A stretch of DNA of 64,000 bases from contig NC_059430.1 in assembly GCF_021028975.2 (NCBI RefSeq), positions 38,998,001 to 39,062,000 on the forward strand. The letters run 5' to 3'. This document shows, one piece after another, positions 21,730 to 63,999 of the stretch. The position numbers were made by a program, and so were the translations under genes. The notes below the pieces were generated by a model. The model was not told the DNA's origin. It did no database searches and saw only the letters and a program-made list of their open reading frames with translations. Position 1 is the first letter of the stretch; each line of letters starts with the position of its first letter. The stretch is from Sphaerodactylus townsendi. Taxonomy: Eukaryota.

Positions 21730-22094
21730 AGGACAAAAAGCCCTCACTGAGTGTTAAAATGATGGAGATCTACAGAATCTTGCTTGGTGTGTAGAAGAAG
21801 TGGGCGAGAGATGCTTGTCTTCTGCTCCCAACTAAAACTCAGAGTAATTCTGTGAAACTGATTGGCACGAAATTCAAGATAGACAAATGGAAGTGTTACT
21901 TCAAACACTGGGGAGCTGACTTACAGCACTCATTGCCACAAGCTGTGGTGATGGCCACTGGCTTAGACAGAATTACAAATAGGAGGATGAACAGATTGAT
22001 AGAGGATAAATCTGTCAGCCCTGATCACTGGCAGGTGCTGGGGGGCCCTTTTGAGGGCTTTTCTGTGATATATGACTGGTCACTGTTGGAAACA
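21730..22094 (+). mobile_element. Degenerate CR1 3' fragment
   Basis: KLIGTKFKIDKWKCYF..SLPQAVVMATGLD resembles the CR1 ORF2 end. Confidence 0.65.
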
Positions 22095-23532
22095 GCATTT
22101 TGAGGAACAAACCCTGAAAACAGCACCAAAAAAGCCCACCATATGGTTCCGCTATGTGGATGACACATTCACCATTTGGAGCCACGGAGAAGAAGAACTA
22201 AACAAGTTCCTGGACCATATCAACAAGATCCAGCCTAACATCCAGTTTACTATGGAAAAAGAAAATGAAGGAAAACTGCCATTTTTAGATGTTTTAGTCA
22301 TCCGCAAACCAAACCAGCAATTGGGACACACAGTATACAGAAAACCTACCCACACAGACAGATATCTACACAAAAACTCCAATCACCATCCAGGGCAAAA
22401 AAGGAGTACCATAAAAACTTTGGTACATCGTGCAAACAGAATCTGTGAACCTCACCTCCTACAAGATGAATTGAATCACCTAAACAGGGCTCTACAGGCT
22501 AATGGTTACTCTAATACAGAAATCAGAAGGGCTGCAAGACCAAGAACAAGCCACATGAACAAAGATAAAGAGCCATCTAGAGGGAAAGTGTTCTTACCAT
22601 ACATCAAGGGAACCACACTGGATCTAGTAGGAAAACTGATGAAGAAGCACAACCTGGACAAACAATCTACAGGCAGCACGTCAAGAAAATTCAACAGATG
22701 CTAATGCGTTCCAGCAAAGGATAAGAGGGATCCTTTAGCTACTGTAGGAGCTCTATCGCGATACCATGCAGCTGCCAGGACAAAGTCTACACCCAAAGGA
22801 ACCAAACAAAACGCAGCGCCGCAGCTTAGGACATGTATCAAAGAACCGCGAAGGCACTGCGTAGGACTATTTCAGCCAGAAAAAATCAGCAATAGCAGAA
22901 CACATAATAAACCAACCTGGACATAGAATATTATTTGAAAAAAACAGAAATTCTGGACCACTCTTGAAAGCCACTCACGATCCAGACTACACAGAGAAGC
23001 AATTGAAATCCATAAGCACATGGACGAATTTTAGCAGGGAAGGGGAAGAAACTATGAAAGATGAACAGAACTTTGGCTGCCAGTGTTGAAAATAATGCTA
23101 GAGTCAAGCCAGTGTCTAAACCAGCTCCTACACAAACACAGGATGACCATCATGACAAAAAAAGAAACAAAGGCCAGGATACTTCTATTCAGATGCTCCC
23201 ACCAGTGACCTTGCTATCTCCAAAGTGACAGCCTCCCCATGCTATAATGAACTTCATTGTTACTCATAATTCTATTCAGATGCCCTCAACTATTGACCTG
23301 GTTGCCTTCTTTGTTACTCACAGACAATGTTTCTCCCACCCACCCTGGACACTCCAACAGATATATATACTCCACTTGCTTTCCCAACATCAGATCCTCT
23401 GAAGATGCCAGCCACAGATGCAGGCGAAACGTCAGGAGAGAATGCTGCTAGAAGCATCGGCCACATACCCTTTGTAGCCCGAAACCACACAGCACCCAAG
23501 TGATTCCGGCCGTGAAAGCCTTCAACAATACA
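22095..23532 (+). mobile_element. 5'-truncated Penelope-like element: RT C-terminal part, frameshifted GIY-YIG endonuclease, 3' terminal repeat with hammerhead
   Basis: ORF 22072-22704 contains WFRYVDDTF, NIQFTMEKE..KLPFLDVLV and VYRKPTHTDRYL (Penelope RT/thumb motifs); downstream degraded KSAIAEH and REAIEIHKH are typical of the PLE endonuclease region. Confidence 0.9.
23395..23437 (+). ncRNA. Minimal type-I hammerhead ribozyme motif in the PLE terminal repeat
   Basis: TCCT-CTGAAGA-T-GCC..GGC-GAAAC-GTC-AGGA: intact CUGANGA/GAAA core, GUC triplet, TCCT/AGGA stem I, palindromic ACGT stem III. Confidence 0.8.
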
Positions 23533-40700: not shown

Positions 40701-41457
40701 ATAGGAGGGGATACAGGATGCATTGCTGCATTTTGTCAGCAACCTGTGCACTTGGAAATTAGGAAAACAAGTGTTTGCAGAAGACAGCGATTTCCAAATA
40801 GCAGGTTATAGGCAATGTGAAGATGGTCTGTAGGCTATCAGCTGTAACTCAAAGGACTAAGGACCACACAGCAAACATGGCAGCAAATGTATGTTTAACT
40901 CTGTGTCAACATAGCAGGAAACATCGGTCAAACATGCCTCTCCTTTTGTAATGTGTACATATGTGTGTTTTTTAAAAATGTGTATTGATTTAAGACCTCT
41001 GCAAAGTGGCTCTAAGTGGATTTTGTTTCCAAGTCAAAGGCCAGGCTATGACCCTAACAAGGACAAAATGTACGGACGAAAAAACTCTTTTGACAGCTGC
41101 TGGCAAAAAAAATCAATTCAACAATCCGTAGTAATATTCTCAGTACCTATCTTCTTTCTCATACTCACTCTACAAACTGCTTCCAAGGCACTAATCCAAG
41201 GTACAAAAAAAAAAAAAGGAAAGACACATACACAAGATTATCAGAGTGCCAGCAAAGTTAAGTTTGACATACCTCTGGAAAATCTCCTGCAGCGTGTCTC
41301 GTGTAAAGGCATTGCTGTCCTGGAAGACATTATTGAGGGCATGGAGGGCACACAACTCCCTGTGTTGTTTTTCATGATAAATATGCACTGGCATTAGCTG
41401 TGGTGTTTCTGGTGATTCTGATTTGGTTTTGTCACCTTTCCATGGCACACAACTCAT
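37759..41457 (-). CDS. JOSD1: Josephin-1 deubiquitinase (202 aa); exons 41457-41273, 38850-38722, 38616-38422, 37858-37759
   Basis: [10 protein letters not shown]...[21 protein letters not shown] (catalytic Cys), [36 protein letters not shown] (catalytic His/Asp), ...AHQSWRADA*; 609 nt, phases consistent. Confidence 0.97.
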
Positions 41458-42439
41458 TTTTTTTGTAGTGTACGAAGTGAAGATGGGAAGAGATAAAATG
41501 TGTAAAGTCTCTTCTCACACACAAACAAATAGCAACTGACAACTTTTTTTTAATAGAAAACTCCAGTTCACAAGCTGCAAGCCTGTTGCTGCTTTAAGAG
41601 TTGGTCTTATTGGATGATTGCATAAGAAACTTTTAAAGATCTGAATCATTTTTCTTCCATCGTCATTCTTCCTCCGCTTTCAAGAGACTGTCCTTAATAT
41701 ATACCCCTCTGTATCTTAGTTACTCCTTGAAAAAAATATTTTACAATTTATGTGGCCATAACATCAGATTGCCAGAAGAAATTTATCACATCGTTCTTTT
41801 TCCTCCATTTCCTCTGGTCAATGATGCCACTAAGCAACAGATCCACAGCCAAAGTCTGAAATTATGCTCACTTTCAAAAAACAAAAGAAAGCAGAAACTT
41901 CATGAAATTAAGGAAGGCCAGCTGGCTGCTGTCCAAAAGGAATATAGGAATGCCAGAGAGGCATCAAGGGCACTTTTCCATTCTTGAGAGAGAGGCTATG
42001 TCCTAGAAACAAAGATGCCAAGAGGTAGACAACTTCCTCTTCCAAGGTAGAAGGGAATAAAGCAGCTCCACTTCACTAATGCTCCTTGTATTCCTGACAA
42101 GAGAAAAGACAGCTCCAATTAGGCACTTTCCCCTTTTCACTATGCTGAGAACAAAAATACAAATAAGCACCTCGAAGCTGGTTTTTACAGCTATGTTGTA
42201 TAATTACACCCAAGGCAACAACAAAACTCCAAGGCCTACACCGCCCAGGACCCACAACCTCGTTTCTCCCAATTTGGGAAGGCTGGCTTTCCCTAGCCTG
42301 CCCAATACAACCGTTCCAGGCACAGCAGAGCTAAGGATGCTGTCCTTTCTCACCACAGAAGGAAAAGCTCCGATAGCAAAGGGGGACTTGGGGGAAGGGG
42401 TTCCGTGTTTGCCAGGCCAGAACTCTAGCCTGTGTTGTA

Positions 42440-44059: not shown

Positions 44060-44186
44060 TGGCTTTTTGAGTTTTCTGGGCTGTGTGGCCATGATCTGGT
44101 AGTTTTTGTTCCTACCGTTTTGCCTTCATCTATGGCTGGCATCTTCAGAGGCATGTCATCATAGGAAGTGTGTCTTTCCATGGCAT
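44060..44186 (-). mobile_element. Degenerate PLE terminal-repeat fragment nested in a SINE
   Basis: Similar to the left arm of the 44825-45072 element; flanked by direct repeat GGTGTCTCAAAG (44048-44059, 44187-44198); hammerhead GAAA changed to AAAA. Confidence 0.7.
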
Positions 44187-44824
44187 GGTGTCTCAAAGCA
44201 TCTTACAGTCACCTTCCCCACCCCTCAACAGACACCTTGTGAGGTAGGTGAGGCTGAGAGAGTTCTGAGGGAGCTGTGACTAGCCCAAGGTCACCCAGCA
44301 GGCTTCATGTGGAGGAATGAGAAAACAAACCTGGTTCACTGGATCAAAGTCTGTGGCTCATGTGGAGGAGCAGAGAATCAAATCCAGTTGTCCAGATTAG
44401 AATCTGCCCCTCTTAGCCACTACACTACCACACTGGTTCTCTGTTGCATTTGCTGAATCACATTCAGCACAACTGTTCAGGATTGTACAGAACCAGTATT
44501 TGACACACTTGTGGAAAATAATGTGATTATGCTCTGTGATGAATTTGCATTGTTCTTTGCAGACAAGATATATCTGATCCAATTTAACTTGGATGCCTGT
44601 TTGCATTTAGGTTGCATAGGAAAAGTATTAGAAGCACCATCTTGTCGATTTTCTATGGATAGTTTAGGACTGGTATCCCTGAACAGTGTTGGTTGGATTA
44701 TAGGTATTCTGAAGGCCATCGCCTGTGTGGCTTGGACCCTTGTCTCTGTGACCAATAAAATTCTGCCTTGAAAAGCTGAGAGTACCCTGTGTGGGAGAAT
44801 TTCTCCATGAAAAAAGGAAGAAAT

Positions 44825-45072
44825 TGTCGAAGGATTTCACAGCCAGATTCAACTGGTTCTTGTGGGTTTTCCGGGCTGTGTGGTTGTGGTCTGGTGGATC
44901 TTGTTCCTAACGTTTCGCCTGCATCTGTGGCTGGCATCTTTAGAGGTGTATTACAGAGGGTGACTTCCCTCTGTGATACACCTCTGAAGATGCCAGCCAC
45001 AGATGCAGGCGAAACGTTAGGAACAAGATCCACCAGACCACGGCCACACAGCCCGGAAAACCCACCAGAGCC
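44825..45072. mobile_element. Fold-back (inverted) Penelope terminal-repeat insertion with two opposed hammerhead motifs
   Basis: 107-bp inverted arms (44854-44960 / 44967-45073); 12-bp direct repeat AAAGGAAGAAAT at 44813-44824 and 45073-45084; arms resemble 23395-23530. Confidence 0.85.
44981..45021 (+). ncRNA. Minimal hammerhead motif, intact core
   Basis: CCT-CTGAAGA-T-GCC..GGC-GAAAC-GTT-AGG. Confidence 0.7.
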
Positions 45073-45269
45073 AAAGGAAGAAATGTTTACTGGTACACAT
45101 TTGATGTGGCAACTTACAGACTGGTCTCCAACAGTGTAGACTTAAGCAGAGTTATATACTTCTCAGCCTACTGAAGTCAGTGGGCTCAGAAAGGTGTAAC
45201 TCTGCTTAAGTCTGCTTCTTGACCTGTTGGGACAATATGATATGTATGGTATGTATTATATGTTGCTGC

Positions 45270-45930
45270 ATCTTCCTTGACAAGTGTTCATCCAACTGGG
45301 GGAGCTGTTACCTCCCTAGGCAACTGATTCCACTGCTGAACAATTCTTATTGTAAAGATTTCCCCCTAATATCTGGCTGGTACCCTTCAACTCATAATGT
45401 GAACCCATGATTGCAAGTCCTATCCTCTGCTGCCAACAGAAACAACTCCTTGCCCTCTTCTAAGTGACATCCCTTCAAATACTTAAAGAAAGAAATCATG
45501 TCCCCCTCACCTCCTCTTCCCCAGACTGAACACTCCCAAGTCCCTCAGTCTTTCCTTGTAGGGTTTGGCCTTGAGGCCCTGGTTATCCTTGTCTCTCTCT
45601 TCTACCCCTCTCCAGTCTTTCAAGATTCTCCAGAACTATACATAGTATTTTGGGTGCAGTCTGACCAATGCTGTGTACAGCAGGACTATGACATCTTGTG
45701 ATTTGGATGTTATGCCTCTGTTGATACCTCCCAAGACTGTATTAGCCTTTTTTGCCACTGTATTACAGTGGCTGCTCATGTTTAGTTTACAGTGCACCTG
45801 TACCCCAAGATTTTGTTCACACACACTACTATCCAGAATGTTATCCCCATTTCAGTTCATGTGTTTCTTTTTTGTTACCTAGATGTAGAATTGTGCATTT
45901 ATCCTTGTTGAATAACATGTTGTTCACATG
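45270..45930 (-). mobile_element. Degenerate CR1 LINE fragment
   Basis: EQNLGVQVHCKLNMSSHCNTVAKKANTVLGGINRGITSKSQDVIVLLYTALVRLHP is a CR1 ORF2-like peptide. Confidence 0.8.
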
Positions 45931-47041: not shown

Positions 47042-47482
47042 CTATAGACTTAGAATCATAGGGTTGGAAGAAACCCCAAGGGCCATCAAATCCAACCCCC
47101 AGCAATGCAAGAACACATAATCAAAGCACTCCTGACCATCCCGCCTCTCTTTAAAAACCTCCAAAGAAGGAGACTCCACCATGCTCCAAGGTAGTGGATT
47201 CCACTGTTGAACAACCCTTACTGTCAGGAAGTTTTTTTTGATGTTTAGGTGAAATCTCTTTTCCTTCATCTTGAACCCATTACTCTTGGTCCTAGTCTCT
47301 GGAGCAGCAGAAAACAAGCTCGCTCCCTCACCAACATGACATTTCTTCAAATATCTGAAAATGGCTATCATGTCATCTCTTAACCTTCTCTTGACCAAAC
47401 TAAACCTCCCCAGCTTCTAAGTCTCTCCTCGTAGGGCATGGATTCCAGACCTTTTACCATTTTGGTTGCCCTCCTCTGGACC
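47042..47482 (-). mobile_element. CR1 LINE 3' fragment
   Basis: Translation KRRLRDDMIAIFRYLK...RTKSNGFK...KKNFLTVRVVQQWNPLP..VESPSLEVFK matches the CR1 ORF2 C-terminus; ends in a TTCTATGATTCTA-type tail. Confidence 0.85.

Positions 47483-49395: not shown

Positions 49396-63999
<14,604 letters not shown>

Follow-up and report, generated by a model that had tools for sequence, protein, structure and literature searches.

An inverted, truncated copy with a tail of 30–40 bp on one side only is typical of insertions of Penelope-like elements (PLEs), according to the portions available of PMC8557442 and PMC3846280. For the Poseidon element of Anolis, the available parts of PMC11167929 report two start sites of reverse transcription, one lying 111–118 nt into the ORF and the other a tail-length from it, as well as cutting and extension of both target strands; they also predict that the protein forms a dimer. 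Cleavage by the hammerhead ribozyme of the Anolis element needed protein, and the ribozyme was dispensable for insertion in vitro. In PMC4209133, also available in part, a single minimal hammerhead motif did not cleave, and the minimal type I hammerhead of PLEs is described as needing a same-sense partner. The same source notes pairs of hammerhead motifs on opposite strands, 100–700 bp apart.

The window analysed here, a stretch of 64,000 nt from the gecko Sphaerodactylus townsendi, contains a 248-nt insert between two identical 12-mers (Table 1). Its 107-nt arms (44854–44960 and 44967–45073) are 94% complementary and are separated by 6 nt, and the predicted fold reaches −228.5 kcal/mol (z −25.8; none of 200 shuffles was as good). 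This bears out the fold-back that an earlier note had described from the sequence, with its arms, loop, length and flanking repeat. The hammerhead cores that the note had recognized are likewise present: the plus-arm core is intact (CTGAAGA at 44984–44990 and GAAAC-GTT at 45011–45018), and in the minus arm a C>T change at 44941 generates the G5A core mutation. The note had also stated that most arm differences would be G-U pairs, and five of the six are so on plus-strand RNA, the sixth being a T/C mismatch. The 6-nt loop is made up of T44961, which fits neither arm, and of 5 nt of extra plus-arm length, while the unpaired segment at 44825–44853 is the PLE tail belonging to the minus arm. The last bases of the adjoining 12-mer also fit PLE sequence, up to +115. 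Both arms translate as the opening residues of the PLE ORF.

Table 1. Features of the fold-back insert (positions in the window; offsets with + or − are relative to the ORF ATG)
Feature	Position	Strand	Basis or remark
Left copy of 12-bp target-site duplication (TSD)	44813..44824		Single copy at the empty site of organism E
PLE 'tail' of the minus arm (roughly +84 to +113), lacking on the other arm	44825..44853	-	Tail as in PMC8557442 and PMC11167929 (parts available)
5'-truncated PLE end 1, −23 to +113/115, ORF ATG at 44937	44825..44960	-	91.9% identical to the subfamily majority
Hammerhead motif (minimal, type I) carrying G5A at 44941	44906..44946	-	Mirrors the plus-arm motif
Junction base, matching neither arm's family sequence, likely untemplated	44961..44961		Compared with the family majority
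5'-truncated, tail-less PLE end 2 with ORF ATG at 44990, covering −28 to +83/84	44962..45072	+	96.4% identical to the subfamily majority
Hammerhead motif (minimal, type I) with an intact core, a GUU triplet, a helix I of 3 bp and no loop on helix III	44981..45021	+	As in PMC4209133 (parts available)
Right copy of 12-bp TSD	45073..45084		Identical to the left 12-mer; empty site of organism E

Judged by sequence comparison, the insert is a pair of head-to-head 5'-truncated ends of an abundant Poseidon-type PLE. A search of its own genome with the insert returned 3595 candidates, and the 40 that were scored are near-full-length two-arm matches at 88–93%. Exact genome counts are 13,189 for a 22-mer of the subfamily and 7,971 for the tail pattern. 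A 19-mer covering the hammerhead and ATG has 43,561 exact matches, taking in several subfamilies. Longer copies that begin from the same end lead through the 3' region into a GIY-YIG-type C-terminus and a reverse transcriptase (RT) with a DKG motif, in agreement with the PLE origin put forward in the earlier note. The RT is recognized in L218 (RVT_1, E 8e-12), with the DKG motif in the upstream frame, and GIY-YIG endonuclease (EN) motifs are visible in L082, L132 and L078. Atlas matches of the EN lie at 0.94–0.96, and the top three carry PF01541 on 11–30% of their members; Pfam gave no hit on the EN fragment. All of the longer copies examined are broken by stops or frameshifts. A Zn-finger-like linker between RT and EN separates Neptune and Nematis from Penelope/Poseidon (PMC8557442, part available); in the L082 translation the linker, by eye, is short and lacks such a finger. 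A pLTR or partial tandem with a tail, accompanied by an inverted 5' copy, is exemplified by L226, which consists of an inverted piece at the 5' end, the ATG arm, a broken ORF remnant of about 2.7 kb, and a pLTR with tail.

Comparison with other organisms gives an indication of the age of the insertion. In organisms A, B and C, which are closer relatives than organism E, contigs run from both flanks into the insert. The empty site is documented by one contig of one run, from organism E, which matches 44470–44824 (35 other letters and 12 gaps), contains one copy of the 12-mer and then, by eye, matches 16 of the 19 letters from 45085 onward before skipping to about 45183. Since the empty site of organism E has a single 12-mer, the 12-mer is therefore the TSD, and the orthologous-site check proposed in the earlier note comes out in favour of one insertion event. 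At the same site, organism D has no coverage, and organisms G, H and I give partial or no matches. These sequences date the insertion to the time between the split from organism E and the divergence of A, B and C. Decay has since affected this copy in the same way as its siblings.

The ends of related copies were compared in a census drawn from a single contig (its first 17 Mb), in which alignment ends are accurate to within a few bases and at least two likely segmental-duplicate pairs (L241/L242 and L295/L156) are retained. With the hammerhead as anchor, an inverted arm adjoins 53 of 89 anchors (96 of the first 100 places); with the tail as anchor, an inverted partner arm is found in 71 of 99 copies (99 of the first 100 places). 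The partner arms end at +80 to +92 in 57 of the 71, and the tail arms mostly end at +113 to +117. In the insert itself the outer ends lie at +84 and about +113, in keeping with the published pair of RT start sites on either side of the PLE tail. Priming on both nicked strands followed by end joining would account for 3' ends that are fixed at two sites and 5' ends that vary independently, and it also suits the TSD and the short overlaps or added bases at the junctions. The preferred and probable reading takes the insert as one head-to-head pair of truncated Poseidon-type ends with a TSD, likely generated by two-strand priming on element RNA with joining of the cDNAs, a mechanism that we infer from end positions only. 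As a point against this reading, a crude exact search found a TSD of at least 10 nt in only 26 of 59 canonical pairs. The GIY-YIG domain would cut the AT-rich target with a stagger of 12 nt; of the two 3'-OH ends, one would start reverse transcription at the site near +113–117 and give the tail arm, and the other would start at about +84 and give the tail-less arm. Synthesis of both cDNAs would halt slightly upstream of the ATG, at −23 and −28, with one base added as end joining linked the two short products. The product would be a hairpin because both cDNAs cover the same RNA segment, and the hammerheads would be included solely through their overlap with the ORF start. The arms differ by 7.8% within a copy versus 9.7% between copies, and subfamily variants are shared within a copy; this sharing fits a single source RNA or locus.

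An improbable alternative to two-strand priming is self-priming, in which a single cDNA, or an antisense template, folds onto itself and serves as template for the second arm. Such a mechanism has been proposed for palindromic PLE junctions in PMC3846280 (part available), where inverted junctions are read as self-priming on an antisense template. In its favour, variants are shared at 1.6% of positions within a copy versus 0.65% between copies, and many junctions show short overlaps or inserted pieces of the element. If the tail arm were made first, however, its partner could never reach further 5', yet the tail-less arm does so in 37 of 59 pairs. If the tail-less arm were made first, the tail would have no template, and the tail arm would not be the longer one, as it is in 14 of the 59; in the other eight the two ends lie within 5 nt of each other. 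In addition, some pairs barely overlap (L288: +82 versus −44). Under simple snap-back of one cDNA, the same arm, tail or tail-less, should contain its partner in every pair, which the 37/14 split contradicts; antisense self-priming as read in PMC3846280 becomes less probable. A literature search on PLE twin priming and inversion found no PLE report, and one on geckos and squamates found nothing on such stubs; both searches were limited and do not show absence from print.

The census also provides a lead from the inner, 5' ends of the arms. Of 170 such ends, 41 fall between −52 and −43 and only 14 lie beyond −55; the resulting wall near −50 falls at TCACT. An initiator-like word matching TCACT has been noted in a rotifer pLTR (PMC3846280), and a promoter has been located inside the Drosophila virilis element (PMC2377424), each in the part of the source available. 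The pile-up some 43–52 nt upstream of the ATG may mark the RNA start. A cap G was not seen at −49 (28 G, 31 A and 41 T among the first 100 of 268 non-templated bases) or at −50 (3 G and 13 A among 16 non-T rows), and there was no clear pile-up at +26 to +32 as from hammerhead-cut templates (7/48, p=0.09). In the fullest version of this reading, which we offer tentatively and at slightly under even weight, the stubs would be fossils of a PLE integration step not yet described, in which an RT-EN dimer primes on both strands at the two sites bounding the tail, mostly in the 5'-most pLTR of the transcript, with run-off at the end of an RNA that starts about 48 nt upstream of the ATG at the initiator-like TCACT. 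If this is true, the short hairpins are near-complete copies of the 5' end of the RNA and not random truncations.

The earlier note had raised a further possibility, that the insert belongs to a non-autonomous hairpin/ribozyme family, transcribed and re-inserted as a unit by the PLE RT. The near-constant length and fixed outer ends would suit such a family, as would the near-full-length two-arm matches among the 40 scored of 3595 candidates and the 3,529 short fold-backs in the genome with both cores exact (several subfamilies). The fixed ends are, however, explained by the RT start sites, and the junctions are not shared. The exact junction 18-mer of the insert has two matches genome-wide, the other of which lies in unrelated sequence, and 57 of 59 canonical pairs in the sample have distinct junction coordinates. 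Even the best-recurring junction has only three exact matches genome-wide, with the tail placed reciprocally on opposite arms. The core is present on both arms in only 28 of the 59 canonical pairs. At 28 other distinct loci that were fetched, the outer ends are constant while the junctions and flanking duplications differ. Many copies sharing one junction but bearing different TSDs, as in a SINE- or MITE-like mobile family, were not found. For this copy a hairpin family is largely refuted and, overall, very improbable. Every stub arises afresh, and in the continuum that the stubs form this copy stands at the near-symmetric extreme. The other suggestion of the note, a 'one-off 5'-inverted truncated PLE', holds as regards an inverted truncated PLE but not as regards 'one-off', since the tail copies with an inverted partner counted above share its architecture.

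The hammerhead motifs within the insert are predicted to be inactive passengers. In folding of the plus-arm motif alone, the probability of pairing is 0.96 for helix II and 0.23 for helix I; in the full element that of helix II falls to about 1e-30, in line with the earlier view that the long hairpin and the ribozyme fold would exclude each other. No cleavage is predicted because each transcript strand would carry one sense copy locked in its own antisense. A second same-sense copy, from which a dimeric fold could form, is absent from the insert, its second copy being antisense. The other hammerhead copies in the window lie at 44068–44151, in the opposite sense to the plus arm, and at 23396–23437, 21 kb away. 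The Rfam scan that the note had recommended gave nothing to support a hammerhead: no family reached the gathering score on the window, and the 14 weak hits, mostly generic microRNA-type hairpins, included no hammerhead family; identification of the motifs is based on the core motif and the literature. The GUU triplet of the plus arm is the family majority in this genome. GUU is the weakest of the NUH triplets.

The mutations of the two arms look like ordinary decay, both in the case of G5A and in that of the G-U bias. G5A occurs in 218 copies versus 13,189 intact ones, and in a sample of 30 of the 218 it lies on the tail arm in 12, on the tail-less arm in 16 and on a broken arm in 2; the four G5A arms in the mutation and end census had all been retrieved with this copy as search seed. 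A designed pair with one ribozyme on and one off was considered and rejected on these numbers and on the occurrence of the mutation on both arm types. In 71 two-arm copies, about 29 of which were chosen by likeness to this copy, mismatches between arms comprise 203 G-U, 166 A-C and 171 others (G-U versus A-C, p=0.061), and there is no G>A excess on either arm. Selection at the RNA level as a source of the G-U bias is not supported by these figures. Variation is 18.8% at CpG positions, 3.1% (325/10538) at other non-CpG positions and 2.1% (26/1254) at non-CpG positions of the core (core versus other, p=0.052). The overall picture is one of neutral decay, with two borderline signals against it, those of the core (p=0.052) and of the G-U pairs (p=0.061).

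The interval around the insert is flanked by a Josephin exon on the minus strand (41194–41514) and a GTP_EFTU exon on the plus strand (54558–54983), both identified by Pfam. From these hits and from their N-terminal sequences, the genes are presumably JOSD1 and GTPBP1. CpG-rich blocks are present at 42–44 kb and 48–50 kb, about 2 kb and 4 kb from the insert, respectively, so that the setting described in the earlier note, between two divergent genes, holds. No role of the insert for the neighbouring promoters was found.

Other repeats are present in the window. At 22069–23530 (plus strand) there is a 5'-truncated PLE of a related subfamily, with a 211-aa frame for the RT core and thumb, a broken EN, and a pLTR with hammerhead and tail; it is 70% identical over about 460 nt to the subfamily of the insert, and Pfam did not recognize its RT-thumb fragment. 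A lone, older PLE end of a related subfamily lies at 44065–44200 (minus strand), about 700 nt from the insert; its 44065–44151 portion was considered as a second fold-back and rejected, as it has one older arm only. In a sister subfamily (contig C1), the turning point of many fold-backs lies some 10 nt before the ATG, immediately behind a pyrimidine tract with a terminal CAG that resembles a 3' splice site beside helix I; a 3' splice site next to helix I is reported for D. virilis Penelope (PMC4209133, part available). A second small palindrome, with 37-nt arms, 84% complementarity and a 2-nt loop, occupies 45138–45213; it is repeated in read data, has no BLAST match in the fetched loci, and lies partly within a segment (about 45104–45182) that organism E lacks. 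Further common repeats beside the insert lie at 44200–44440 (matches in 146 fetched loci) and 45400–45600 (34 fetched loci). A frame on the minus strand of the window at 47042–47416 resembles the RT C-terminus of a CR1-type LINE.

Co-option of the insert by the host, as a source of dsRNA or small RNA or as a regulatory element between the divergent gene pair, has very little probability: the position between two CpG-rich blocks, the presence in organisms A, B and C and the very stable predicted hairpin would be compatible with it, but the insert is absent in organism E, its divergence and mutation types are as in sibling copies, and several other repeats lie in the same interval.

This copy is one neutral stub among thousands and matters little alone. 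Taken together, the stubs provide an extensive natural data set for PLE integration, a step that the cited literature, in the parts available, calls unresolved. The arm ends point to priming on both strands and to a possible RNA start. In addition, the stubs seed thousands of potential dsRNA hairpins genome-wide, including the short fold-backs with both cores exact.

The insert is well explained as an ordinary truncated and inverted PLE insertion, and may be compared with several known systems. In L1 twin priming, the second target strand primes on the RNA and the result is an inverted product with a TSD and an end-joined junction, as in the insert. The two L1 cDNAs cover different parts of the RNA, whereas those of the insert overlap, giving a hairpin. 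Non-LTR retrozymes (bioRxiv 10.64898/2026.07.22.740005, part available) share with the insert a non-coding nature, derivation from PLEs and a type I hammerhead. They are, however, head-to-tail tandem units, while the insert is one inverted pair with a one-off junction. The motifs of the insert resemble the minimal hammerheads of metazoan PLEs described in PMC4209133 (part available) in the lack of a helix III loop, the extra base before helix II and the palindromic ACGU. In those PLEs the hammerhead dimer needs a second same-sense copy; the second copy of the insert is antisense.

In PAc, the Poseidon element of Anolis carolinensis (PMC11167929), the ORF likewise starts at hammerhead stem II, the target is AT-rich, and the ends fall at about +113–117 and one tail-length upstream. 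PAc belongs to a different subfamily and host, and the comparison is with its published description. The portions of that paper available to us include neither fold-back stubs nor a two-strand-priming model for them. The EN+ Penelope/Poseidon insertions (PMC8557442), including Adineta Pen2a (PMC3846280), show head-to-head inverted ends, a tail at one end and a TSD, as does the insert, and in both cases the pLTR includes the first codons of the ORF, according to the parts of these sources available. Unlike those insertions, both partners in the present element are only about 110–135 nt long and there is no ORF body, so that the whole insert is a hairpin.
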